The notes beneath the pieces were generated by a model. That model made no database searches, had not been told where the DNA came from, and saw only the letters and a program-made list of their open reading frames with translations. A stretch of 64,000 bases of DNA from a virus. Both the position numbers and the translations under genes were made by a program. Positions within the stretch are counted from its first letter, which is position 1; each line of letters begins with the position of its first letter. Shown in pieces: positions 9,685-60,506 of this stretch. Where the stretch lies: the IMG/VR virus record IMGVR_UViG_3300029957_000006, positions 60,455 to 124,454 of that record, one strand, 5' to 3'.

Positions 9685-11384
9685 TTGTTTTATTTTTTTA
9701 CAACTAAATAATGGTGATAATTTTTATTACCATCAGAAGCAAAATAGCCCCATTTCAATTCACCCCTTTGTACTCGTTCACCTATTAATCTGAATTCATC
9801 TTGTGGAGCATCAGATGCTATTCGTATGTATTTCGATGGCTTTATTTCTTCTTTTTCTTCTTTCTTTTTAGCCATTGTGATTCATATAACAAAGGTACTA
9901 TATTTATTTTATAAATACAAGTATTATTTTTTAGGTTTTCTCCAATGATTATTAATCATAATATTAAGATTTGTAAAAGGAATATATCGGCCACCTTTCA
10001 TTCCTTTTCCAGTTCTAAAATATACATGAATACCAAAAATAGTAAACCAAGTTCCACCTATGTGTTTCCAATCACCTTTTTGAAAGGGTTTCCAACAATC
10101 AAGATTATCTGATCTTTCCTTATAGTATTCATTCATAAATCTGATCATGCTCCAAAATTGCTTCTCAGCTTCTTCTTTTGTCTTTCCATCACCATAACTT
10201 GAAAAACCTAGAATTTTTTCAGCTTCTTCTGTTGTTGAAATAAAAACTGTTTCACCCTCTTGAATCAATTCAACTGGTATGCTTATATTAATAGTTTCTG
10301 AAGTCATATTAGTATTTTTTTACTGTTCCTTGATCAGTTATTGAAACAAGAGTGTCTTTGCCATATGGCATTCCAGTTCCGTTGAAAACAACTGAGCGAT
10401 TTTGATCGATCCAACGCTTGAAAATTAATTGGCCTTTAGCATTGTAAAGGTAGAGTTCTTTACCTACGATTACTTTATTAAATGTTCCTTGTAACATAAA
10501 ACTTTATTTATTTTTAATAGAATACTCTTTTCGTTCCAATAGTAAAGTCAAATCAGTATATGCAATCCAATCACTGAACTTATCAATGAATAAATCAATG
10601 TATCTGGATGCACCTTTGGTGTGTTCCAGATTTACGCATGAATTAATAACAGCTTCTGCTTTCTCAAATGCGATTTCTTTTGGACTTAGTTGATTATTCA
10701 TTTACCGAATAGGTTAATAGTTGTTTACATTTGTCACAGTATATTGGAGGTGCCTTTCCTAACATTGATTCAGAAATATACGGTCCTTCATTATTGCCAT
10801 TGATATCTTCAACAATATAATTTTCACCTTCTTTGCTTGATACAAAACACATTATGATGTAACATCGATTACATAAAGCAACTGGGTTACCACCATTAAA
10901 TTTTATTATTGGAGTTAGCTTTTTCATTACAAAGGTACAAATTTATATTCATTTAACCAAATTTTATTTTAGTAGAAACAACTCTTATATAAATATTCCC
11001 TATTGCAACAATAAATTAAAAATTACTTTTCTTCCTCCTTAACAGATTCATTATCAACCTCATCTTTTGGTTTTAACAAATCAGTTAAATTCTTGATGGC
11101 TTCTGTCACCATTACTTCTCTTTTGGAATAGCCATTTTGATCAGCTAAATCAATTAAAGCACATAATGCTTCACAAACACAAACTACGTCTGTATTAACT
11201 AATAATTGAGCTTCTTCGAAATTGGTTGGTGGTTTAATCTCATTTGGTTTCCCAAGAATGACCTTTTGTGGACGATCACTATCAATGTCTATTAATAATA
11301 AAGTTTTCATAATATCTAGCTTTTAGGCAAATATACTATTTTTTTCGTATCAGTGCAACTATTTATATGCAAATTAAACCAATC

Positions 11385-27128: not shown

Positions 27129-27858
27129 TTTAAATGGTATTTCACTATAAATATCACTTAAAAGGTTAAAATTACCAAGATTTTGAACCCAATTTCCGAT
27201 AAATTCTATTATTAAAATCATTTAATAATGATTCTGGTATGATTATACCGTTTTTTGAAAATTCTTCAAGAATTTCTCTTTTACTGAATGAACCTTCAAC
27301 AATTCCATCACTCCATTCATTTACCCAAAGACCCCAAGATTTTTTACCAATTATAACACTTCTAACTATGTTAGGGTGTCTGGTTTTAATAACGATATTG
27401 TCTTTGTAATTTCCATTGTCGTATTTTCTGAATACGTTTTTACCTTCAATTTCATTCACATCAAATTGAATTGGATTTATATCACTACCACAAAAAGTAA
27501 GAATACCTTTTCGATGTGATTGTATAAAGAAGATGAAGATTTGATTAAATCCTTGTGAGTATTTTTGAAGCTTTCTTTCATGCTTCGATCCTATTTGTAG
27601 CTTACGTAATTCTATACGTTGCTGCTTGGTGCGTCCAAGCTGTTGCCCCCTTGACTTATCATTTTAATAGAGTTAATTCTTTTCGTAATTCACTTATCTT
27701 TCTTTGTGTTCCAGCAACATCAATTTCCTTAGTAGTGGAAGTCTTTTTAGTTAGAGCTGAAATCATTTCATTTTCTAAATATTGGATTCTTTCTTGAAGC
27801 TTGGCTTTCTTTTTTTCTAACTTTCCCATTACTAGGTATTTTAATCATGTGTTATTTG

Positions 27859-27970
27859 CAGTGGTGCTAGGAATCGAACCTAGAATTCTGGCGTGAGAGG
27901 CTAGTTTAATTGCTGAACGTAATCTTAACAGATTAGCTTTTACATTGTGATACCATTTCACTACACCACT
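27859..27970 (-). tRNA. tRNA-Glu(CTC)-like with insertion of about 40 nt
   Basis: Acceptor AGTGGTG/CACCACT; D and T arms intact; insert lies between D and anticodon arms. Confidence 0.55.
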
Positions 27971-27973
27971 AGT

Positions 27974-28045
27974 TGAGAGAGCGAGTTTCGAACTCGACTT
28001 TTCCACCCGTCTAGGTGGCGTACTAACCAATTATACTATCTCCCA
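27974..28045 (-). tRNA. tRNA-like, anticodon ambiguous (6-nt loop TAGACG)
   Basis: Cloverleaf with CCACC/GGTGG stem. Confidence 0.45.
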
Positions 28046-28150
28046 ATTTTGCAGTCATAGTTGGATTCGAACCCAACCTAGAGGAAGAATCGAACTTCCA
28101 TCTCACTTAGTTCCTACTACCATTCGGAAACTTTTGTATTTGTTAATTTG

Positions 28151-28223
28151 CGGATGTGACGAGAGTTGAACTCGCTCCATACTGCGTGACAAGCAGACAT
28201 CTTAACCGTTTGACCTCACATCC
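28151..28223 (-). tRNA. tRNA-Asp(GTC)
   Basis: ctgc-ttGTCac-gcag. Confidence 0.8.
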
Positions 28224-28285
28224 ATTTTAATAACAAGAACCACTCATTGACTAGACGAGTGTTTGGTTGTCAACCATCCTTTTAG

Positions 28286-28360
28286 TGGAGCGTAAGGGAA
28301 TTGAACCCTGTTTTTCAGAATATCTTGCAAGGATATTTGGCTGCGCCTGTGCAACACCCC
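28286..28360 (-). tRNA. tRNA-Ala(TGC), atypical D-arm
   Basis: aatatc-ctTGCaa-gatatt; G3:U70 pair present. Confidence 0.65.
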
Positions 28361-28370
28361 ATTTTAATTT

Positions 28371-28449
28371 TGGCGGTTCTAGAGGGAGTTGAACCCTCAT
28401 TCTTCCTAGATCGACAATCTAGTTCCCAACCCAGTGGGCTCATAGAACC
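28371..28449 (-). tRNA. tRNA-Asp(GTC)
   Basis: ctaga-ttGTCga-tctag; encoded CCA. Confidence 0.75.
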
Positions 28450-28452
28450 AAG

Positions 28453-28526
28453 CGGAGAGTACGGGATTCGAACCCGTGGCCTTTTGCGTGACAGGCAAAT
28501 ATTGTAACCAGCTCTACTAACTCTCC
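28453..28526 (-). tRNA. tRNA-Asp(GTC)
   Basis: tttgc-ctGTCac-gcaaa. Confidence 0.85.
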
Positions 28527-28583
28527 ATTTAATCCGATTACGTTGATTTTTTACTGCTCGGATTGACACAACAAAAACACTTG

Positions 28584-28655
28584 TAAGATGTACGAGACTC
28601 GAACTCGTGTTTGCCCCTTCAACGGGGCTGTCCTAGGCCACTAGACGAACATCTC
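28584..28655 (-). tRNA. tRNA of Glu/Gln-type body with irregular anticodon loop (GTTGAA)
   Basis: Good acceptor, D and T arms; gcccc/ggggc stem. Confidence 0.5.
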
Positions 28656-28724
28656 TGACCACTAGAACATCTACAAATGCTTTTCATGGCCTCTACTTTG
28701 ATCATTGTAGTGATCTCCATATAG

Positions 28725-28809
28725 TACTGCGTATGGGATTCGAACCCATGATACTCTTACGAGTTCCACCTTGAAAGGATGGCGACCTAGACCGCTAGTC
28801 AAACGCAGC
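28725..28809 (-). tRNA. tRNA-Glu(TTC) with long variable arm
   Basis: ccatc-ctTTCaa-ggtgg; variable arm actc-gtaa-gagt. Confidence 0.75.
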
Positions 28810-29013
28810 ATTTTTAATTATTGCAAGTATTTCTCTTGGTGTTATTACTTCACACTTAGATTGTATCTCAACAATTCTTTTCTTTGGTATATCATAGTGA
28901 TCTTTATGAAACCAACATTTTTTTATTCCTAATTCCTTAGCCATTTCATGTAAGTTCTCGATTGAATACGGAACACATACTAGATGGCGTTTATTATCAC
29001 ATTTGTATTTCAT
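28795..29013 (-). CDS. Small DUF4031-like protein (start MKYKCD)
   Basis: HLV...LHEMA..LGIK..WFH..HYDI. Confidence 0.55.
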   Translation of the reverse strand: MKYKCDNKRHLVCVPYSIENLHEMAKELGIKKCWFHKDHYDIPKKRIVEIQSKCEVITPREILAIIKNAAFD

Positions 29014-29028
29014 AATTATAAATACTTG

Positions 29029-29100
29029 TACTCCCAAGGAGAATTGAACTCCTGTTTTTTGGTTGAAAACCAAACGAACTAACCACTATTCGATGGGAGC
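29029..29100 (-). tRNA. tRNA-Glu(TTC)
   Basis: tttgg-ttTTCaa-ccaaa. Confidence 0.85.
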
Positions 29101-29356
29101 ATTTAATAGTCTTTCCTATTAGTCTTTAAATGGGTTATGAATATATTCATTAGGAAATTCCTTGATAAATAACTTCCTCAATTTAGAATATCTTAAATTA
29201 CCTAATTCCTTTAGATTATATTGAGGTAAATTTTCTAATTCTTGTATCCAATGTATTCTAACAAGAAGTATATGAAATCTAATATGTCTACGTTTAACAA
29301 TCCATCTTGAATATTTCCATTTCAATAATATTAAAAATTTCTTCATAATTCTTTAG

Positions 29357-29998
29357 TTATTTTCTTCCTTTAATCCATCCTTGTTCTATAAACGAATTAA
29401 TATATTCTTTTTTTATTTTTTTATGTTCACCTTCTTTCGTAATCCAACAGGTATCATATTGAGAATTTTTATTTCCATTATGTTTACCTTTATGTGATTC
29501 AGACATCAATTCAATTGTTTCAATACTATGATTTTTCCCTGTCATGGTATCATACTTAATTTTACCATTTTTATGAGCAATTTTCACATTCTCCAACAAA
29601 GTTTTTTTTATTCTATTTCCAAATAATTTATCCTTTTTAAATCTTATAGCGAAATTTTTAGGACCATCTGATGTAATAAATTTATGTTTATGTTCTTCAT
29701 TAACAAATCCACCATCTCCACCTTCCTTCAAATTCATACATAAATCTTCACCAATCAACTCTTTTGTCACTAATTCCTTCTCTCTGTTTTTCAATAATTC
29801 TCTTGTTGGTAACCACTCAAGTATTTCCTTAGTATGATTCTTTTTACCATGATAGTTAATACTAAACCAAAGTCGTTTTCCACTACCAAAATAACCATCA
29901 TTCAAGTTATCTGTTGAGTGCATTCCTATGTAATATCTATTTGTTACATTACATGTAATTTTATAGATGTAATGATATTTTCTTTCTTGTCTTGCCAT
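29357..29998 (-). CDS. GIY-YIG (Seg-like) homing endonuclease within tRNA cluster
   Basis: YIYKIT...YYIGMHST...YFGSG, NLKEGGDGG. Confidence 0.8.
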   Translation of the reverse strand: MARQERKYHYIYKITCNVTNRYYIGMHSTDNLNDGYFGSGKRLWFSINYHGKKNHTKEILEWLPTRELLKNREKELVTKELIGEDLCMNLKEGGDGGFVNEEHKHKFITSDGPKNFAIRFKKDKLFGNRIKKTLLENVKIAHKNGKIKYDTMTGKNHSIETIELMSESHKGKHNGNKNSQYDTCWITKEGEHKKIKKEYINSFIEQGWIKGRK

Positions 29999-30034
29999 AT
30001 ACTAAATATACGGCAAGGTACAAAAAAGTCAAGG

Positions 30035-30107
30035 TCATCCCTACGGAATTTGAATCCGTGTTACCGCCTTGAAAGGGCAGTGTCCTAGACCACTAGACGA
30101 AAGGATG
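30035..30107 (-). tRNA. tRNA-Glu(TTC)
   Basis: ctgcc-ctTTCaa-ggcgg. Confidence 0.85.
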
Positions 30108-30112
30108 ATTAG

Positions 30113-30186
30113 TGGAACTTCCAGTTATCGAAGCTGGGACGCAGACCCTAACTGGGTCTCGCTCTACCATTCTGAGCTAAAGTTCC
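30113..30186 (-). tRNA. tRNA, possibly Asn(GTT), atypical loop
   Basis: agacc-caGTTag-ggtct; lacks U33. Confidence 0.5.
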
Positions 30187-30216
30187 TTAAATCCAATATG
30201 TCAAATAACGTTGTTG

Positions 30217-30289
30217 TGGACCTTCCCAGTTTCGAACTGGGCTCTCATGTTCTTCAGACATGCGCTTTCACCAGATTAGCTTAAAGTCC
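30217..30289 (-). tRNA. tRNA-Phe(GAA)
   Basis: catgt-ctGAAga-acatg. Confidence 0.85.
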
Positions 30290-30679
30290 ATTTATTTCTT
30301 TTTCAATTAAATCATTACTATGTCCATTGTTATACAAATCAATTATTATTTGTATCATTTCCTTTGTAATATGACCTCTTGATTGATTTTTCATGTTTTC
30401 TAGATGTGTTACCCATCTTAAATTTTCAATTCTATTATCATTTTTTACCCTATTAATATGATCAATAAATGGTTTATTATCTGGATTTTCAATAAACGCT
30501 TCACCTATCAATCTATGAAGAATACAAGTTTTTCGTTTTCCATTGAAGTACAAACCAACTATTTTATATCCTTTACTATCATTATGTATTTTAACTAATT
30601 TTCCTGTTTTAATGTTTTTAAGATTACCAAGAGTTGAAACCTCGTAATTACCTTCTTTTATTTTTTTCCATTTTTCCAT
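30281..30679 (-). CDS. NUMOD4-HNH homing endonuclease (start re-set to MEKWKKI)
   Basis: YEVSTLG, HRLIGEAF, IDHINRVKNDNRIENLRW. Confidence 0.8.
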   Translation of the reverse strand: MEKWKKIKEGNYEVSTLGNLKNIKTGKLVKIHNDSKGYKIVGLYFNGKRKTCILHRLIGEAFIENPDNKPFIDHINRVKNDNRIENLRWVTHLENMKNQSRGHITKEMIQIIIDLYNNGHSNDLIEKEINGL

Positions 30680-30691
30680 TGCAATATATGT

Positions 30692-30722
30692 AAAAAAAAA
30701 AGGTTGACTTCGGCCAACCTTT
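30692..30722 (-). terminator. Attenuator terminator of the Phe/Asp/Ala/Glu tRNA operon
   Basis: aaggttggc-cgaa-gtcaacctt followed by U-run. Confidence 0.8.
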
Positions 30723-30749
30723 CTTATCAAATTAATTATAACGTTTTCG

Positions 30750-30839
30750 TTAACTTTTGACAATAGTTGACCTTCCTTGGCTTTTATCGGCCTCGGCTGC
30801 AAAAAATGCAAAATCAAATATGTTGTTAACTGTTTTCAT
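30750..30839 (-). promoter_or_regulatory. Leader peptide MKTVNNIFDFAFFAAEADKSQGRSTIVKS
   Basis: 29-codon ORF between promoter (30903) and terminator; F/D/A/E run. Confidence 0.8.
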
Positions 30840-31250
30840 TGTTTTTAGTCTTGTGGGTTTCCCCTTGTCTTAATAAATATGTCGTTTCTTTTAAATGTTA
30901 CACAAAGGTACTAACTATTTTATTAAAAAGCAAGTCTTTTGGCAATTTTTTTTTAGTTAGAAGAATAAGTCTTGATCAAAGAAGTAAATTCTGTGTAAGT
31001 TTCTCTACTAACATTTTTGTTTTTGTAGTTAGCTTTAACTCTTGCTTTGATGTCAGAAACATAATTTCTTCCGAAGTTAGCTTTTCTTGAAGCTTCTGAT
31101 AATGAGATTTTTTGTTTAATGGCAGTCTTGATGATTTTGATACCATTTTTAACACTGGTTTCTGTTTTGGTGTTTGTCATAAATTTTGGTTTTTGTTTTT
31201 TGTTATATTGCAAATATACTAAATTATTTTATATCTAGCAAGCTTTTTAT

Positions 31251-32132
31251 TTAATTAGTCTTAACATAGAGTCTCAGCTTATCTTGATTCAAGAGTCCTT
31301 TCATACCATATCCTTCATCATAAGAAGCAAAGATATCTGAAAAATTATCAGCTGAGAATTTTCTAAACCATCCACCAGTTAAATTTGTTGAGACTCTTAC
31401 CAACGCATACTTGAAAGCATCTTTATGTGTAAAGGCTGGAATATTTGACTCTCCTTTAATAAGAGGATAAAGACATCTTTCCAAAGCAATTACATAACAC
31501 TCTTCAAGAACTTGTTTAATCTTGTCCTCATGAGATAGAGATTCAAAAAGAGACTTATGACATTCAACTGTTTCGTCAATCTTTGTTCTCAAATACATTG
31601 GTTTATCATAATGAGCCATTATCTCATGAATTGAGTCATGTTCATAATAATATTTAACCTTATCAGTGAAAAATACCGTACTATCTTTACCTTTTAATTT
31701 AGGTAAATGAAGTCGTTTAAGTTCAGCTTCGTTAAAGGATAGAATAAATTCTTCTCCCCAACTTTTTGATAGCTCAGTAAGTTCTGGTGTTAATTTAGTG
31801 ATCTTAAGTAGCTCTGAATAATCCATCAAGTGTTTAAATGATTTTCTAAACTTGCCTCGATAAATATACTTGTGACTATTCTTGATACTTAAAACAACAT
31901 CTAATGGTGCAACTACCTCAGAGGTAGTTGCATTACAATAGTTTAAATAACGTTCTCCAGTTGAATTGGGATGAGCGACAAATATATCAGTTCTTTTTCC
32001 ATCTTTTATAACTGAATAAAATCTATCAGTTGCCTCAACACCTGTTAATTTAGATGTTTCAAATGGAGTAGCGATGACATCTAAGTCTTCTGGCTCTCTT
32101 AACTTACTTGCTGTTGATCCTATTATTAGCAA
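31251..32132 (-). CDS. Phage hypothetical protein, nucleotidyltransferase-like N-terminus
   Basis: IIGS...DLDVI; HDSIHE motif. Confidence 0.45.
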   Translation of the reverse strand: MLIIGSTASKLREPEDLDVIATPFETSKLTGVEATDRFYSVIKDGKRTDIFVAHPNSTGERYLNYCNATTSEVVAPLDVVLSIKNSHKYIYRGKFRKSFKHLMDYSELLKITKLTPELTELSKSWGEEFILSFNEAELKRLHLPKLKGKDSTVFFTDKVKYYYEHDSIHEIMAHYDKPMYLRTKIDETVECHKSLFESLSHEDKIKQVLEECYVIALERCLYPLIKGESNIPAFTHKDAFKYALVRVSTNLTGGWFRKFSADNFSDIFASYDEGYGMKGLLNQDKLRLYVKTN

Positions 32133-32421
32133 TTTGAGTTTTCGTCAAAGTTAGCATATTCATCAGTCATTGCTTCGATGATACAAACTGATGCTTTTGT
32201 ATTCAAGTTTTCGAATTCACCATTAAGTGATTCAATTGCATTTTCTCCAGCACGTGCTGTCAATTCGCCATCTTGTACTTTTACAAGGATTTCATTTAAG
32301 CGAACATAGTATTTCTTTTGTTCTGCTTTCTTTTCTTCTGCTGTCATTTTCATTTTTGTGAATTTTAAGTGTTAATTTTTATTTTTACAAAACTACACCT
32401 AATTTTTGAAACCTACAAGTT

Positions 32422-32739
32422 TTATTTTTGATTATTTCTAAAATGTTCTTTAAGTTTCTTTTGTCCAAGTAATTCCAACAACACATCACCATGACAGGGT
32501 TCTGGTTTACAAAAACAACCAAGTACCTTTCCTTCAAGCTCATCTAATGCTTCCATTAATTCTGGACTAGCAAGGATGTGTTCTTTATACTTAGCAAGAG
32601 CTTCTTCTTTTGATCCAACTACTTCTTTAGCTAGTGTTGGCCGATCTTTAATTATTGTAAAAGGACAACCCCATTTACTACCTCTGCCAATATACACATC
32701 ATATGGATCATGTTTAAGATTTACCAGTTTAGTTACCAT
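32422..32739 (-). CDS. DUF4326 protein
   Basis: DVYIGRGSKWG.PF...LGCFCKP.PCHGDVL. Confidence 0.8.
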   Translation of the reverse strand: MVTKLVNLKHDPYDVYIGRGSKWGCPFTIIKDRPTLAKEVVGSKEEALAKYKEHILASPELMEALDELEGKVLGCFCKPEPCHGDVLLELLGQKKLKEHFRNNQK

Positions 32740-33509
32740 ACTTCAATTTCCAATATCCTTGTTTATTTAATCTGAAAAATGTTACATATTCCTTAGGTAC
32801 ATCAATGAATTCTTCTTTATAAATATCAGCATCATATAATTCAAATGCTTCAGTGCAATACACACTAACTGGTTTATCTGTAAATTTACTGATATCAGAC
32901 ATCTTAATCAAACCAACTTCAGTATAGTCAAGACCCCAAACGAAATAATAATCACATTGTGAATTCCTTTTCCTTATTGGAATATGAACAGTTGAGTAGA
33001 TATCTCGAATTTTTTTAAAATTACCCCGATATTCATTTTCAACACTTATTACTTCACCTTTATCATTCTTGAATATTAAATCATATTTTTTGAAGTGTTC
33101 TTTTTCAACATCACCTATTAATTCGTAGCCTCTATTTTTCATAAGTGATATAGCAGCTTTTTTTGCACTCATATCACACTGTCTATATATATGAATATCA
33201 AATTCTCTTTTTGCTTCACTCATATCAATTAAAAACGAATAATTTCTTTATCATATTAATTAACAGTAATGGTTATTCCTAATGACATACCTAACCATAG
33301 AAGACTTAAATTATATGACATTGGTCCAAAATGTCTAAATTCTTTTTTATGACCAAATCTACTAGGTATTAATGTTGGTATAAGTGCTAGTTCACTATTA
33401 TATTTAGTAAAAGATACTGAATATTTTTTTGTTAATGTTAATGTTGTTCTCATATTACAAATATACATAAAAAAAGCCGAACAATCAAGTTCAGCTTTTA
33501 GATAAAAAT

Positions 33510-33947
33510 TTAGGTAGTTTTCTTCTTTCTGAAAGTTGGAGTTTGGCTATGACAATTAGGGCAAAGAATTCTAAGGTTTTCTAATCTATTGTCATTACTA
33601 TCACCATTGATATGATCCAATTCAAGTGTCATTGGTTTACCATTCCACTCACCAGTATTACCACAACTTAAACATTTATTCTCTAATAATCCAGTAAATA
33701 TTAATCGTCTTTTTAGATGAGGTGAATCAAATGTTACTTTATTAGCTAAGATATCCTCCATCTTAACCTTACTCTTAAGTATTCCCTTACCAGACATATT
33801 CCCAACATAAATAATATCCATTTTTTTTAAGTAGATATTAAGTGTATCTTGTTTACATCCAAGTTCTTTTGATATGAAAGATTTAGGTTTATTTTCTGAA
33901 ATCCAAATTAAAATTTCGTCTTTTCGTTTAATTATATCTTTTCTCAT
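33510..33947 (-). CDS. HNH endonuclease
   Basis: LELDHINGDSNDNRLENLRILCPNCHSQT. Confidence 0.85.
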   Translation of the reverse strand: MRKDIIKRKDEILIWISENKPKSFISKELGCKQDTLNIYLKKMDIIYVGNMSGKGILKSKVKMEDILANKVTFDSPHLKRRLIFTGLLENKCLSCGNTGEWNGKPMTLELDHINGDSNDNRLENLRILCPNCHSQTPTFRKKKTT

Positions 33948-34003
33948 ATATTAAATATATGGTAGACATGTGAAAAGTACACAATACGTGTTAAAACATT
34001 TTG

Positions 34004-34077
34004 TAGCCCTCGTGAGATTCGAACTCACACTGGATGGCTTCTTAGACCATTGCCTCTACCAATTGGGCTAGAGGGCC
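34004..34077 (-). tRNA. tRNA-Leu(AAG), short variable arm
   Basis: atggt-ctAAGaa-gccat. Confidence 0.75.
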
Positions 34078-34164
34078 AAGTTCAAGATGGTTGTATGGAA
34101 TTGAACCACTGATTTATTTTTGAGATAAATTTTTAACCTGTTACTTTGCTGTAACCATCTTTTG

Positions 34165-34246
34165 TGAGAGTGGTGGGACTCGAACCCACAAGCCTTTCGG
34201 CCTCCGTTTCTAAGACGGAGCTGTATGCCAATTCCAGCACACTCCC
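34165..34246 (-). tRNA. tRNA-Leu(TAG)
   Basis: tccgt-ctTAGaa-acgga; long variable arm. Confidence 0.9.
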
Positions 34247-34403
34247 ATAAATACTAATAGCTGAATGTATCCCAGTTTACCATTGACTTACTTTGACCAA
34301 TCCCAATCTTAGTTGTTGTTGGTTTTAAGAGCTTGGACTTATTTCATTGCCAAGATAAACACGCAAATATTTCAATTTACGTAGTAAGCACTATTAATAT
34401 TTG

Positions 34404-34485
34404 TAGCCTAGAACGGACTCGAACCGTTACGTCTTGCGACACCAGATTTTGAGTCTGGCGTGTCTACCAATTTCACCACAAGGCC
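34404..34485 (-). tRNA. tRNA-Leu(CAA)
   Basis: ccaga-ctCAAaa-tctgg. Confidence 0.9.
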
Positions 34486-34500
34486 ATTGTGATCATGTTG

Positions 34501-34576
34501 TAGCCCAAGTGGGATTCGAACCCACAGTTGTACAGATTTTAAGTCTGTTGTGTCTAACCAGTTGCACCACTGGGCC
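34501..34576 (-). tRNA. tRNA-Leu(TAA), short variable arm
   Basis: acaga-ctTAAaa-tctgt. Confidence 0.8.
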
Positions 34577-34582
34577 ATCTAG

Positions 34583-34664
34583 TAGGGAAAAACGGACTCG
34601 AACCGTTACGCCTTACGGCAAGGGATTTTAAGTCCCTCGTGTCTACCAATTTCACCATATCCCC
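34583..34664 (-). tRNA. tRNA-Leu(TAA)
   Basis: aggga-ctTAAaa-tccct. Confidence 0.88.
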
Positions 34665-34680
34665 ATAAGAACATATGTTC

Positions 34681-34857
34681 TTATTCATTTTCTTTCCATT
34701 GAGAATTTCGATATCCTTTCCAAGAGAGGCTGTGATTATCTCTATTTCTATTACAACCTCTGTTAGGTGGACAAATCGGGCAACCCATGTTTTGTCTTAA
34801 AGCCTTGTTATACACTTGGCTATTCATTGTGTGTTTCAGTGTCTTTTTTTCTCTCAT
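34681..34857 (-). CDS. Small Cys-containing basic protein (58 aa)
   Basis: MREKKTLKH...MGCPICPPNRGCN...SWKGYRNSQWKENE. Confidence 0.5.
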   Translation of the reverse strand: MREKKTLKHTMNSQVYNKALRQNMGCPICPPNRGCNRNRDNHSLSWKGYRNSQWKENE

Positions 34858-35190
34858 GTTTCACTGTGCTTTATTATGCACTAGGTGAAACCATCCGCTT
34901 TTAAATTCATCATTATACTTTTTCTTCTTTAATGGTTGATGACTTGCAACATTCAAATAATTTAGCTAATTCTGGTTTAATTTTACCTTTCAATCCATTT
35001 AAAAGACCAGAATCTTCCCAAGCTTTTGTGACTTTTTTGATCTTATCTTCTTCTATTTTTTTCTTAAGATCACTTAAACAAGCTGAGTGAGCAAAGTGTG
35101 TTTTATCAACAACAATTGCCATGCAACTAATTGGTTTTTCGCAGTATGAGCATGTAAAGTAAATCATGTTATTTTGTATTAAATTTTTAG

Positions 35191-35261
35191 TAGCCCCTGA
35201 CGGAATCGAACCATCTACGCTTGCATGTAAGGCAAGTACACATCCATTGTGAATAAGGGCC
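35191..35261 (-). tRNA. tRNA-Val(TAC)
   Basis: cttgc-ctTACat-gcaag. Confidence 0.8.
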
Positions 35262-35266
35262 ATTTG

Positions 35267-35339
35267 TTGGACTTGAGAATTTTGAAATCTCGACTTCTAC
35301 CATGTCATAGTAGCACTCTAGCCTCTGAGTTAAAGTCCA
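35267..35339 (-). tRNA. tRNA-Val(GAC)
   Basis: ctact-atGACat-ggtag. Confidence 0.75.
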
Positions 35340-35351
35340 ATTTTTGAGTAG

Positions 35352-35479
35352 AGCAAAAGGTAGGGATCGAACCTACATTACAGTCAACCAGACATCCTGA
35401 TGAGAACCATCAGGTAGAGGATTGATGACTATTCCTCCGTTTAAAAAGCTAGCGTGTATACCACTTTCACCACCTCTGC
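35352..35479 (-). ncRNA. tRNA-like RNA with large structured central insertion
   Basis: Acceptor GCAGAGG/CTTTTGC, Leu-type D-arm, T-arm GTAGGTTCGATCCCTAC; centre contains cctgatg/catcagg hairpin. Confidence 0.55.
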
Positions 35480-35503
35480 ACTACTCAATATTTTAAAGAA
35501 CTG

Positions 35504-35578
35504 TGGGAATGACAGGGTTCGAACCTGTGACCCTCTGCTTGTAAGGCAGATGCTCTGAACCAGCTGAGCTACACTCCC
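35504..35578 (-). tRNA. tRNA-Val(TAC)
   Basis: tctgc-ctTACaa-gcaga. Confidence 0.92.
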
Positions 35579-36437
35579 ATGATAGGATTAACCTACCTTT
35601 ATAAATTCACCAGCATCAATCGCTTTTTGAATCCATCTGATTAATTCTGATCCTTTTACTTCGGCACCAAATGGTGTTGATCCTAAATCAGAAGAAAGCT
35701 TATCGAATTTAATTTCTTCAAAATCATCCATTCCATCAACAGGTTCTTTTATTTTTGTAACTAATTTTCCTTCAAATTTATAATGAAAATTAGTAGCATC
35801 ATAAATACCAGATGTTACAACATCATCCAATTTAACTTTATCAAGTGTTGAAATAGGGAACTGAAATTTACCTTCATTAATTTCAACAGTATAATATAAA
35901 TTACCAGATTGGTAATGGCTAAATACTGCAAAGTTTTTTGACTTGTATAAGTCTTTTTTTATTTCATTCTTGTCAACCATCTTAAACAATTTTTTCTTTT
36001 GTATATTTTTTTTGCTCTGATTTTTATTTCTTTTTCTTTTAAAGCATTTTCAAATAATATTGCTTCAATTTCTTTTTTCACTTGATTAGGCATATCCGTT
36101 TTCTCGTTTCCATTTTTCATGCATTTGATGAATGGTATCACCCACACTTGCACCTTGTCCTTCGACTATATTATCAAATCCATTTTCTTTTGTGATCATG
36201 GATTCTTCTGCTTTGATGGCACCTTTGAATTTCATTCCATAAGCACCTTCCATTTGTTTGGTTGCTGGATTTACATCACCCCAACCAACTCTCCAATTTC
36301 TTGGTTCAATATATTCAACGAAATATCTTTTACCAGTTTCTGGATAAAAATAAATCTCTCGTCCTGTTTCATCCCTATCAATAAGGAAATCTTTTTTAAT
36401 GTCTGTCATAAAACTATTTTTACTCTTTGTTATTTTG

Positions 36438-36508
36438 AGTTCCCAACTGGATTCGAACCAATGTAGGAGGATTTGCAATCCTCAGCCTAGCCACTCGACC
36501 ATGGAAAC
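36438..36508 (-). tRNA. tRNA-Cys(GCA)
   Basis: gagga-ttGCAaa-tcctc. Confidence 0.88.
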
Positions 36509-36524
36509 TTATTTTCATTACTTG

Positions 36525-36599
36525 AGCACATGATAGGATTCGAACCTATGGTTGTACAGTTTTGCAGACTGCTGCTTTGGACCACTCAGCCACATGTGC
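36525..36599 (-). tRNA. tRNA-Cys(GCA)
   Basis: gcagt-ctGCAaa-actgt. Confidence 0.88.
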
Positions 36600-36602
36600 A
36601 TT

Positions 36603-36633
36603 AAAAAAGCCCACCTTGTTGGAGATGGGCTTT
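36603..36633 (-). terminator. Attenuator terminator of the Cys/Val/Leu tRNA operon
   Basis: aaagcccatct-ccaaca-aggtgggcttt followed by U-run, immediately before tRNA-Cys. Confidence 0.8.
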
Positions 36634-36652
36634 CATGTTTAAGTATCATAAC

Positions 36653-36727
36653 TTAACAAGCATAGCCCATCCTGTCTAGCACTAGACATAACAATAAAAG
36701 GACTGATGTGTTGTTAATGTTTTTCAT
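36653..36727 (-). promoter_or_regulatory. Leader peptide MKNINNTSVLLLLCLVLDRMGYAC
   Basis: 24-codon ORF between promoter (36772) and terminator; V/L/C run. Confidence 0.82.
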
Positions 36728-36843
36728 TTTGTTTTTCTTATCGAATTTCTTCGTTGTTTAATAAATATAAGCAAAGGTACTAAAAGTTTTGGTAATTGTC
36801 AAGTTTTTTGTTGTTTATTTTGATATTTATGATAAAATAAGTC

Positions 36844-37413
36844 ATGATCAAAGAACTTCTTAGGAAATATTTATTGGAATATGCTATTACTGAGGCTGAA
36901 CCCACTGGTCATTTTGGTGATAGAGTTAACGAAGTTATTAACAATATAGTGTCAATTCAAATTCCTCCTACTGCTTATTTACCCAATATTCCTAAAGAAA
37001 AACAAGACGCTTGGATTATAAGTCAGATACAAACACAACTTAGAAATAAAATTAATGCTGTAAAAGAAAAACAATACCCAGAAGGTAATTCTGGAATTTG
37101 TGTCTTGGTTCCTTTAGGTCTTATAAAAATACAACCAATGAATGGTGTTGCATCAAATATTATAGTAACAGCAAAAAGAACAGAAGGATTAATGAGTGGA
37201 TTTAATTATTATATAGCAATTTATGATAATCGTATGCCATCTATCGTATTAGCTGACCCTAAGAATCCAAATAATTCATCGCCTGGTAATCAATTGTTAG
37301 CTCATATGAATAACAATATTAAAAGAGGGGATAATGTTAATAAAGCTAAATCTTTCGTTGATAAAAGCTTTATGAATAATATTGTTGTTAATATGAGAGA
37401 CTTTAAAGCTTAA
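36844..37413 (+). CDS. Hypothetical protein, putative late/virion class
   Basis: GATATTTAT upstream; N-terminus ...YLLE. Confidence 0.5.
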   Translation: MIKELLRKYLLEYAITEAEPTGHFGDRVNEVINNIVSIQIPPTAYLPNIPKEKQDAWIISQIQTQLRNKINAVKEKQYPEGNSGICVLVPLGLIKIQPMNGVASNIIVTAKRTEGLMSGFNYYIAIYDNRMPSIVLADPKNPNNSSPGNQLLAHMNNNIKRGDNVNKAKSFVDKSFMNNIVVNMRDFKA

Positions 37414-60104: not shown

Positions 60105-60506
60105 GATACAAAGGTAGTAAAACTATTTGGTTAATCCAAATAAATTATAATGTAGGTATTTCTTGAGTTGTGTTCCAAACTGCTTTGCCAATCAACAAAG
60201 AAGCATCTTGGCCTTCATAATAACCATCTGATTCTCGAAGAACATAAATTGGTTCACCGATTTCAGCTGCAACTGCTTTCAATGCTTCACCATGCTTGGT
60301 TAAATCCAAATCACCCCACCAAACCTTTCCTTCTTTTAGTGTTATAACATTAGCATTAAAAACACAAACACTCTTCGGATTAGCATCTCTATACATTGTT
60401 TTTGATATGGATATCATATTACCCATATATAGTGATTGATTCTTAAATGATTCTTTTATATTCATACTTTATATTGAGATTTCAATCTTTATTAATACAA
60501 AATTAA

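Follow-up and report, generated by a model that had tools for sequence, protein, structure and literature searches.

A probable leader-peptide attenuator at the head of a phage tRNA operon, with paralogs matched to other tRNA blocks

Leader-peptide attenuation is a textbook form of control over amino-acid biosynthesis, and the enterobacterial examples include trpL, hisL, leuL and pheL as well as multivalent leaders such as that of ilvGMEDA (Ile/Leu/Val) and the thr leader (Thr/Ile). An element with a similar architecture lies at positions 30692-30910, on the minus strand, of the stretch analysed here (the window: 64,000 nucleotides of a virus, positions 60,455 to 124,454 of IMG/VR record IMGVR_UViG_3300029957_000006), ahead of a block of transfer RNA (tRNA) genes. 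Judged from its sequence and from that of its relatives, this element is probably a transcription attenuator of the ribosome-mediated (leader-peptide) type, with a phage tRNA operon under its control. Like the enterobacterial attenuators, it has a short open reading frame (ORF) in which regulatory codons follow one another, an intrinsic terminator and, excluding it, an antiterminator that uses the terminator's 5′ arm; a putative upstream strand could sequester the antiterminator, and more than one amino acid appears to be sensed per leader. There are also multiple distinguishing characteristics. First, the phage element would gate tRNAs rather than biosynthetic enzymes, so that its product would relieve the stall directly. 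Second, a single phage leader would sense four amino acids here and up to seven in a related class (class IV), and four paralogs divide all 20 amino acids. Third, the element is encoded by a phage and carries a Bacteroidota-type promoter.

Other described systems share some of these properties. The pheST attenuator of E. coli (the pheM leader) brings an aminoacyl-tRNA synthetase gene under leader-peptide attenuation by means of cognate codons; it is therefore a precedent for attenuation of a translation-apparatus gene, but it gates a synthetase, senses one amino acid and is cellular. T-box riboswitches also read the state of a specific tRNA and convert it into a choice between terminator and antiterminator, but they bind the tRNA directly, without a ribosome, and use one specifier codon. 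None of the Rfam leader families (Phe_leader and the His, Leu, Thr and Trp leaders) matched positions 30692-30910, and the twin element described below scored 28.8 bits against Phe_leader, under the gathering threshold of 55. The nearest case in print is the trn operon of Anabaena, which, in the accessible portions of the two sources, is a long tRNA array induced under translational stress and controlled at its promoter by the repressor TrcR bound to direct repeats (PMC8421152, PMC10272220). As is proposed for the phage, an accessory tRNA array stays off until translation is impaired; the control of trn, as far as those portions describe it, acts at the promoter without codon-specific sensing, and the strings “attenuat” and “leader” occur 0 times in the accessible text of PMC8421152. 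Phage tRNAs themselves have been linked to defence: in the portions available of two further sources, they counter tRNA-cleaving systems by replacing host tRNAs lost in infection (PMC10264068, PMC11464382). Those portions concern the tRNAs and the nucleases, not a sensor that switches tRNA genes on. In the literature, supplements not covered, no account was found of leader-peptide or attenuator control of tRNA genes, phage or cellular.

Parts of the element and conservation of the reading frame

An earlier sequence-only reading of the window had placed a promoter, a leader ORF and a terminator at this locus, and all of their coordinates check on the minus strand (Table 1). The same reading had noticed eleven consecutive codons for Phe, Asp, Ala or Glu (F/D/A/E), and these are confirmed as codons 8-18 of the ORF. 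Such a run is exceptional in this genome: among 1049 ATG-started small ORFs (15-60 codons, six frames, whole 124,454-bp genome) only one has an F/D/A/E run of 11, namely the leader itself, and the next best run is 6. The terminator stem has 13 pairs (30725-30696) and a stability of -14.6 kcal/mol, and its 10-T run ends at 30692. The 216-nt leader as a whole folds at -40.2 kcal/mol, better than 200/200 dinucleotide shuffles (z -3.16). The second element that the sequence-only reading had pointed to, at 36603-36779, is also real: its run of nine Val, Leu or Cys (V/L/C) codons is again reached by 1/1049 small ORFs, the twin leader itself, and all nine of these control codons can be read by the anticodons downstream. 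The promoter layout TTGnnn-17-TACCTTTG heads the twin element too, along with 20/21 of the relatives’ leaders; in the exception, the class IV leader of contig G001, a 36-aa ORF separates box and leader.

Table 1. Features of the attenuator and of the surrounding tRNA region (positions in the window)
Feature	Position	Strand	Details
Promoter	30903..30933	-	TTGCTT, 17-nt spacer, TACCTTTG box at 30910-30903; Bacteroidota -7 type
5′ untranslated leader	30840..30902	-	63 nt, A-rich ahead of ATG; small GGGG-AAA-CCC hairpin
Leader ORF	30750..30839	-	29 codons + stop; peptide MKTVNNIFDFAFFAAEADKSQGRSTIVKS
Control run	30786..30818	-	codons 8-18, FDFAFFAAEAD (TTT GAT TTT GCA TTT TTT GCA GCC GAG GCC GAT)
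Region 2 (antiterminator 5′ strand)	30765..30772	-	GGUCAACU, within the ORF; pairs with 30719-30712
Hairpin H2	30724..30763	-	between stop codon and terminator; enclosed by and stacked on the antiterminator helix
Intrinsic terminator	30692..30725	-	AAGAAAGGUUGGC-CGAA-GUCAACCUUUUUU + U-run
HNH homing-endonuclease gene	30281..30679	-	132 aa, between terminator and tRNA-Phe; HNH_3 1.5e-11, NUMOD4 3e-09
Gated tRNA block	27972..30289	-	Phe(GAA), Asn(GUU), Glu(UUC) x3, odd tRNA-like, Asp(GUC) x2, Ala(UGC), Asp(GUC), odd tRNA-like
GIY-YIG/NUMOD3-like ORF	29357-29998	-	between Glu tRNAs; interrupts the gated block
DUF4031 ORF	28795-29073	-	among the Glu tRNA genes of the gated block
HNH ORF	33510-33947	-	after the Leu tRNAs
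Twin element (paralogous class II attenuator)	36603..36779	-	peptide MKNINNTSVLLLLCLVLDRMGYAC; directly before Cys x2, Val x3, Leu x5

Relatives of the two window leaders were found in IMG/VR and in metagenome contigs with patterns derived from those leaders. In total 69 leaders were collected, 54 of them unique, and they fall into four classes (I, 11 unique; II, 16; III, 13; IV, 14), the element at 30692-30910 belonging to class I and its twin to class II. A conserved 20-mer spanning the promoter and the start of the 5′ untranslated region (UTR) gave 119 matches in 115 metagenome loci. Leaders account for 49 of these (class I 8, II 16, III 12, IV 13), and the other 70, which a first-ORF rule did not class as leaders, comprise 46 long ORFs (44 of them one bacterial gene, for OMP decarboxylase), 10 other short ORFs and 14 matches without an ORF, the last mostly at contig ends. 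Two of the 10 short ORFs (L057, L108) correspond to a 36-aa ORF that precedes the class IV leader. One contig (L003) holds both leader types of the window, each directly before tRNA genes. A megablast search of the INPHARED phages with positions 28000-37000 returned 16 records with only tRNA-sized matches covering <=1% of the query, and no relative; a search for related loci with the neighbouring 293-aa gene gave 10 pattern matches, none of which was confirmed. Matches of the pattern GGGYTATGCTTGTTAAGT in L004 and L005 lay by chance inside coding sequence and were dropped.

The reading frame of the leader is conserved. The ORF is present in 54/54 unique leaders, and in class I it is kept in 11/11 unique sequences. 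Alignment gaps within the ORF come only in runs of 3 nt in class I (9/9) and class II (22/22); after the stop codon the runs are 1, 2, 3, 5 or 8 nt long. Most gap runs in classes III and IV are also 3 nt. The other two forward frames are open over the ORF span in only 8/108 cases. This pattern supports translation of the leader ORF. Two structural parts of the element, the GGGG-AAA-CCC hairpin of the untranslated leader and the UUGUC...GAUAA base of H2, are kept as well in the class I relatives.

Leader composition and the tRNA genes downstream

The four classes differ in the amino acids that their leaders use: F/D/A/E in class I, V/L/C in class II, T/Y/Q/K/P/G in class III and I/N/H/M/S/W/R in class IV. 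These sets of 4, 3, 6 and 7 amino acids together cover all 20. The four classes are paralogs, since they have in common the promoter, the beginning of the 5′ UTR and, in region 2, a GGGUAUG-like core. All of them occur together in G001, a 233-kb viral contig with 53 tRNA-model matches. There, the class I leader (MRTLTNIFDIAFFAAEEDYSFGRSNTVIS) is followed by genes for tRNAs Phe, Glu, Asp, Glu, Asp and Ala; the class II leader (MKNFNNVVVLLVLCLLVADRMGYAC) by Cys, Val, Leu, Leu, Val and Leu; the class III leader (MKTTATYQTKQYQPKGGTPNGTTGYVMLKDVIVG) by Pro x2, Gln, Tyr x2, Thr, Gly x2, His and Lys x2; and the class IV leader (MRTINIHMISISNWRRNSHQVSGMFNCEGGTEV) by Ser, His x2, Trp, Ile, Met, Asn x3, Met, Arg x2 and Ser. 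Each leader is thus rich in the amino acids of the tRNAs behind it.

The strength of this match was assessed with the G001 leaders alone, to avoid pseudo-replication, and with the initial Met excluded. Of 117 residues in the four leaders, 67 belong to the amino-acid set of the block behind their own leader. When the 20 amino acids are partitioned at random with set sizes unchanged, the mean is 30.3 (standard deviation 6.1, maximum 57), and 0/200,000 partitions reach 67. The true assignment of leaders to blocks is also the best of the 24 permutations, with 67 residues against 50 for the next best. The same correspondence is seen across the whole collection when, for each unique leader, the occurrence with the most downstream tRNAs is taken and tRNAs are counted to the next leader or for 4 kb: 304/322 identified tRNAs fall in the set of their own class, although many contigs are near-identical and the counts are not independent. 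By class, these are 53/59 in class I (Glu 19, Phe 16, Asp 10, Ala 8), 67/73 in class II (Leu 31, Val 22, Cys 14), 88/91 in class III (Pro 21, Gly 16, Gln 15, Lys 15, Tyr 11, Thr 10) and 96/99 in class IV (Asn 18, His 17, Ser 16, Arg 16, Ile 11, Trp 10, Met 8). There are 51 unique peptides, and in each of them some window of 12 residues contains 9-12 that belong to its own set; in every class I peptide such a window holds 10-12 residues from F/D/A/E.

Within a class, residue order is reshuffled among homologs and composition is kept, most clearly in class III (for example, TTATYQTKQYQPKGG versus TYTGKQYPQGKQTPTG). Because composition survives while order changes, selection seems to act on which codons are present and not on the peptide. 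The sequence-only reading had suggested that co-variation of leader codons with tRNA content across related phages be examined; over the four classes and 54 unique sequences, leader composition does track tRNA content at the level of the operon class. Its description of the attenuator as codon-matched holds at the amino-acid level; the codon-level match is not separately significant, as is taken up below.

RNA pairing, a proposed mechanism and its alternatives

The terminator arm can enter a second helix. As the sequence-only reading had proposed, the leader segment GGUCAACU can form 8 bp with the terminator 5′ arm GGUUGGCC, with 2 G:U pairs and a duplex energy of -12.4 kcal/mol (11/200 shuffles were as good). 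Folding of truncated transcripts that end at the terminator loop represents the moment before the 3′ arm is made, and in class I these transcripts form the helix between region 2 and the arm in 11/11 unique sequences, with H2 enclosed. The pairs that make up the helix differ from member to member (GGUCA/UGACC, GGUCAA/UUGGCC, GUGGU/ACCAC, GGGGU/ACCCU). Over all classes, the minimum free energy (MFE) structure of the truncated transcript pairs at least 5 nt of the arm with the last 36 nt of the ORF in 53/54 leaders; controls with a shuffled arm reach the observed pairing in 470/2160 cases overall and in 0/40 for the leader at 30692-30910. For the twin element taken alone, 19/40 shuffled arms are as good, so the case for its antiterminator helix rests on a column test of the class II alignment. 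In that alignment 96.3% of 135 cells are paired and 3/9 pairs are compensatory (a slid partner gives 26-58%), and the class II terminator helix has 5/12 compensatory pairs. Two sequences, I_L068 (ORF end shortened and divergent) and II_L065 (N-terminal extension), were left out of the class I and class II alignments (A1 and A2, respectively) and are still counted in the leader, duplex and folding tallies.

Comparison between classes gives further evidence that ORF and arm change together. ORFs pair better with their own arm than with arms of other classes in 1944/2174 comparisons (mean -13.2 versus -8.6 kcal/mol); the preference within classes is smaller (58/102 in class I). Some class IV members carry an unrelated terminator, CCUUGACC in place of ACCCGAC, and these have a matching ORF segment, GGUCAAGG in place of GUCGGGU. 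Terminator hairpins of -11.1 to -19.0 kcal/mol precede a U-run in 54/54 unique leaders, a count that is partly by construction as a T-run was a selection criterion. In the full-length MFE structure the control-codon region pairs with region 2, and the corresponding upstream (1:2) helix in class II is 79.6% paired with 1 compensatory pair. Still in class II, UUAACAA (codons 4-6) pairs with UUGUUAA at the end of the ORF. For this reason the MKx(I/V)NN start that the sequence-only reading had found common to the two window leaders, which is indeed there, is better explained, together with the conserved GYAC end, by RNA strands that pair with each other than by sensing of Asn.

These observations suggest the following mechanism. 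Transcription would begin at the TACCTTTG promoter, and the 29-codon ORF would be translated as RNA polymerase advances. If Phe, Asp, Ala or Glu codons were decoded slowly, the ribosome would stall in codons 8-18, where it would keep the upstream strand, otherwise a possible partner for region 2, from pairing and would stop about 13 nt before GGUCAACU. Region 2, left free and stacked on H2, would then capture the terminator 5′ arm GGUUGGCC, no terminator would form, and polymerase would read through the inserted HNH gene into the Phe/Asn/Glu/Asp/Ala tRNA genes. With fast decoding, the ribosome would reach the stop codon and cover region 2 and the 5′ strand of H2; the terminator would form and transcription would end at the U-run. 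The spacing is compatible with both states. A ribosome usually covers about 12-13 nt 3′ of its A site. Between the end of the last control codon and region 2 there are 13 nt (11 nt for the RNAduplex site with its flanks), so stalling anywhere in codons 8-18 should leave region 2 uncovered. On the other side, 12 nt separate region 2 from the stop codon, and a terminating ribosome should therefore reach over both the 3′ end of region 2 and H2’s 5′ strand. Because the products of the operon are tRNAs that relieve the stall, the circuit would act as a negative-feedback gauge of supply.

What such a gauge would respond to is a separate matter. Candidates for the natural trigger are tRNA loss inflicted by a defence system, host shut-off and codon demand, and nothing here discriminates among them. 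There is close to an even chance that the switch works as described but senses ordinary supply and demand (the AT-rich codon usage of the phage, host shut-off or amino-acid limitation late in infection) and not the cutting of tRNAs by anticodon nucleases. All 20 amino acids are represented in the leaders, and not just those of the few tRNAs, such as that for Lys, that are nuclease targets, and the control codons are mostly ones common in the phage (TTT 73%, GAT 87%, TTA 39%), both of which would suit such a trigger; against it, the copies with the same anticodon (Glu x3, Asp x3, Leu UAA x2) and the tRNA-like genes with abnormal loops would suit decoy or replacement roles. We propose more tentatively, as something possible and rather less than evenly likely, that the four leaders form a four-channel gauge of decoding capacity over the 20 amino acids, in which replacement tRNA sets stay silent and only the block that is read slowly is fired, and whose main use is the detection and repair of tRNA loss in infection, caused by anticodon nucleases or by phage-driven decay of host tRNAs. 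If so, the tRNA-like genes with abnormal loops would be nuclease-resistant or decoy forms.

Several findings weigh against attenuation of this kind, some of them specific to class I. The class I antiterminator is short (5-8 bp), and for 9/11 class I members the duplex energy is not better than that of more than 10/200 shuffles. The column test that favours class II fails in class I: on the MAFFT alignment A1, the register of the window pairs 37% of cells, and shuffles or slides do no worse. The failure is attributed to a one-base register shift in the terminator arm, on the basis of per-sequence folds. In class I the upstream 1:2 helix is conserved, at 82.7% paired, but shows 0 compensatory pairs. 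In addition, the truncated class I transcript prefers the antiterminator already without a ribosome, and the default in the unstalled state would therefore depend on kinetics and on masking by the ribosome. On the side of composition, some tRNAs have no counterpart in their leader: Asn here, Phe in the class II block of L003, His in class III and Met in the class I block of L069. The first three of these are recent gains. At the codon level, in the case of the twin leader, six Leu codons sampled according to the genome's usage would include all four cognate ones with P = 0.21, and the two GCC codons of the present leader are not read by a UGC anticodon under strict wobble. Finally, if the stall came from amino-acid starvation, extra tRNA would not help.

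Some of these points also bear on whether the ORF matters at all. The terminator could be a constitutive one that insulates the tRNA block from the protein genes upstream, with the tRNAs made from leak or from internal promoters and the ORF irrelevant. The strength of the terminator and the weakness, by energy alone, of the class I antiterminator fit such an arrangement, and a sigma-70-like TTGTCA-17-TATAAT lies inside the leader (30763-30735), although such matches are near chance in number (50 found versus 40.4 expected). A simple stop would make no sense of a dedicated promoter that in every class lies 70 nt ahead of the ORF and some 210 nt ahead of the terminator, nor of a conserved reading frame and covarying pairs between ORF and arm, and we consider the insulator improbable. 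It is slightly less probable still that the short ORFs encode functional small hydrophobic peptides, or that the unit is a small RNA with its own terminator, and that the likeness to the tRNAs is incidental. Class II does resemble the N-terminus of a signal peptide or lipoprotein (MK..VLLLLCLVL), and C-terminal residues are conserved (GYAC; GRS.IVKS), but at the RNA level these C-terminal codons form the strands whose partners are the terminator arm and the 5′ end of the ORF; the peptides keep their composition and not their order, and their four differing compositions each fit the tRNA block behind them in a way that no random partition equalled. Least credible of all is an RNA that senses tRNA directly in the manner of a T-box, for although both would regulate translation-apparatus genes, no T-box covariance model matched within 27500-37200 at E <= 1, nor did any other riboswitch family at that threshold, and a single specifier explains neither 4-7 amino acids per leader nor a conserved reading frame. 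A ribosome-read attenuator is thus the reading that the class-wise match in composition and the covariation of the antiterminator with the terminator arm support, in agreement with the interpretation first put forward from the letters of the window.

Inserted genes, host and significance

The tRNA block behind the attenuator is interspersed with other genes. The HNH gene between the terminator and tRNA-Phe, missed by the sequence-only reading, puts 461 nt between the leader ORF and the first tRNA, versus 63-182 nt in five class I relatives on viral contigs; because the first tRNA lies nearer to the leader ORF in those relatives, the gene is taken to be a later insertion, and the attenuator now also heads it. 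This ORF (HNH_3 with NUMOD4) shares a few bases with the 5′ end of tRNA-Phe. Further homing-endonuclease genes occur here and there in the tRNA blocks, and the DUF4031 ORF is kept at the same place in L003 (about 9985-10195, plus strand). Between the two attenuators, the only other strong minus-strand terminator is at 33472-33499, where transcription of the Cys/Val/Leu unit probably stops once past the HNH gene there.

ARAGORN finds 22 tRNA genes in the genome, all of them in the window on the minus strand. The third tRNA-Asp(GUC) of the gated block (28151-28223, minus strand) was missed at default settings and is found by Rfam (53.3 bits) or by relaxed ARAGORN; a weak tRNA match at 35352-35479 (minus strand, 29.1 bits), also missed by default ARAGORN, is read as Ile(GAU) with a 50-nt intron. 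The sequence-only reading had listed Phe, Glu x3, Asp x3 and Ala downstream, which stands, along with a “CTC-like” Glu copy, which could not be confirmed: the gene in question (28583-28655, minus strand) has a Glu-like D arm, but its loop is GUUGAA. It is one of two tRNA-like genes with 6-nt anticodon loops, the other being at 27972-28045 (minus strand). Such genes could be decoys, frameshift readers or nuclease-resistant forms. Four relatives (L007, L011, L069, L003) have tRNA-like genes with 8-nt loops (“agac”) at similar places in their class I blocks, and ARAGORN reports tRNAs that read stop codons in others, CUA in G001 (L008 10100-10173, minus strand) and UCA in L027. The 36-aa ORF mentioned above sits between the promoter and the class IV leader in some contigs, G001 among them (L008 3488-3598, minus strand; L057 6637-6744, plus strand; L108). 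This ORF (MATHKRVAHTRV...) is very basic and has no Pfam match.

The promoter offers a clue to the host or to its own origin. The 20-mer of the phage promoter and 5′-UTR start is identical to the promoter region of the OMP decarboxylase gene (pyrF) of Flavobacteriaceae, as at the 44 metagenome loci with that gene (for example, L030 5394-6203, minus strand). In bacterial genomes the 20-mer has 14 matches (L140-L153), none with a leader and 9 before a pyrF-like ORF. Twelve of the 14 are in Flavobacteriaceae, among them Xanthomarina, which we take to belong to that family. Given the Bacteroidota-type box and the match of the 20-mer to the pyrF promoter in that family, the host is probably a member of the Flavobacteriaceae.

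Neither the reason for which phages carry tRNA genes nor the control of these genes is settled. Here an attenuation device appears to act on the tRNA genes themselves, and the ribosome would serve to meter tRNA supply; production of the phage's Phe, Glu, Asp and Ala tRNAs is probably confined to times at which ribosomes are slow on the corresponding codons. If true, this would be a new regulatory logic for the translation apparatus, and each leader would be a readable “label” that predicts the tRNAs of its operon. It would also provide a compact, programmable codon-specific sensor for Bacteroidota, and a direct means of finding out by experiment whether phage tRNAs are a response to defences that target tRNAs or to codon demand.

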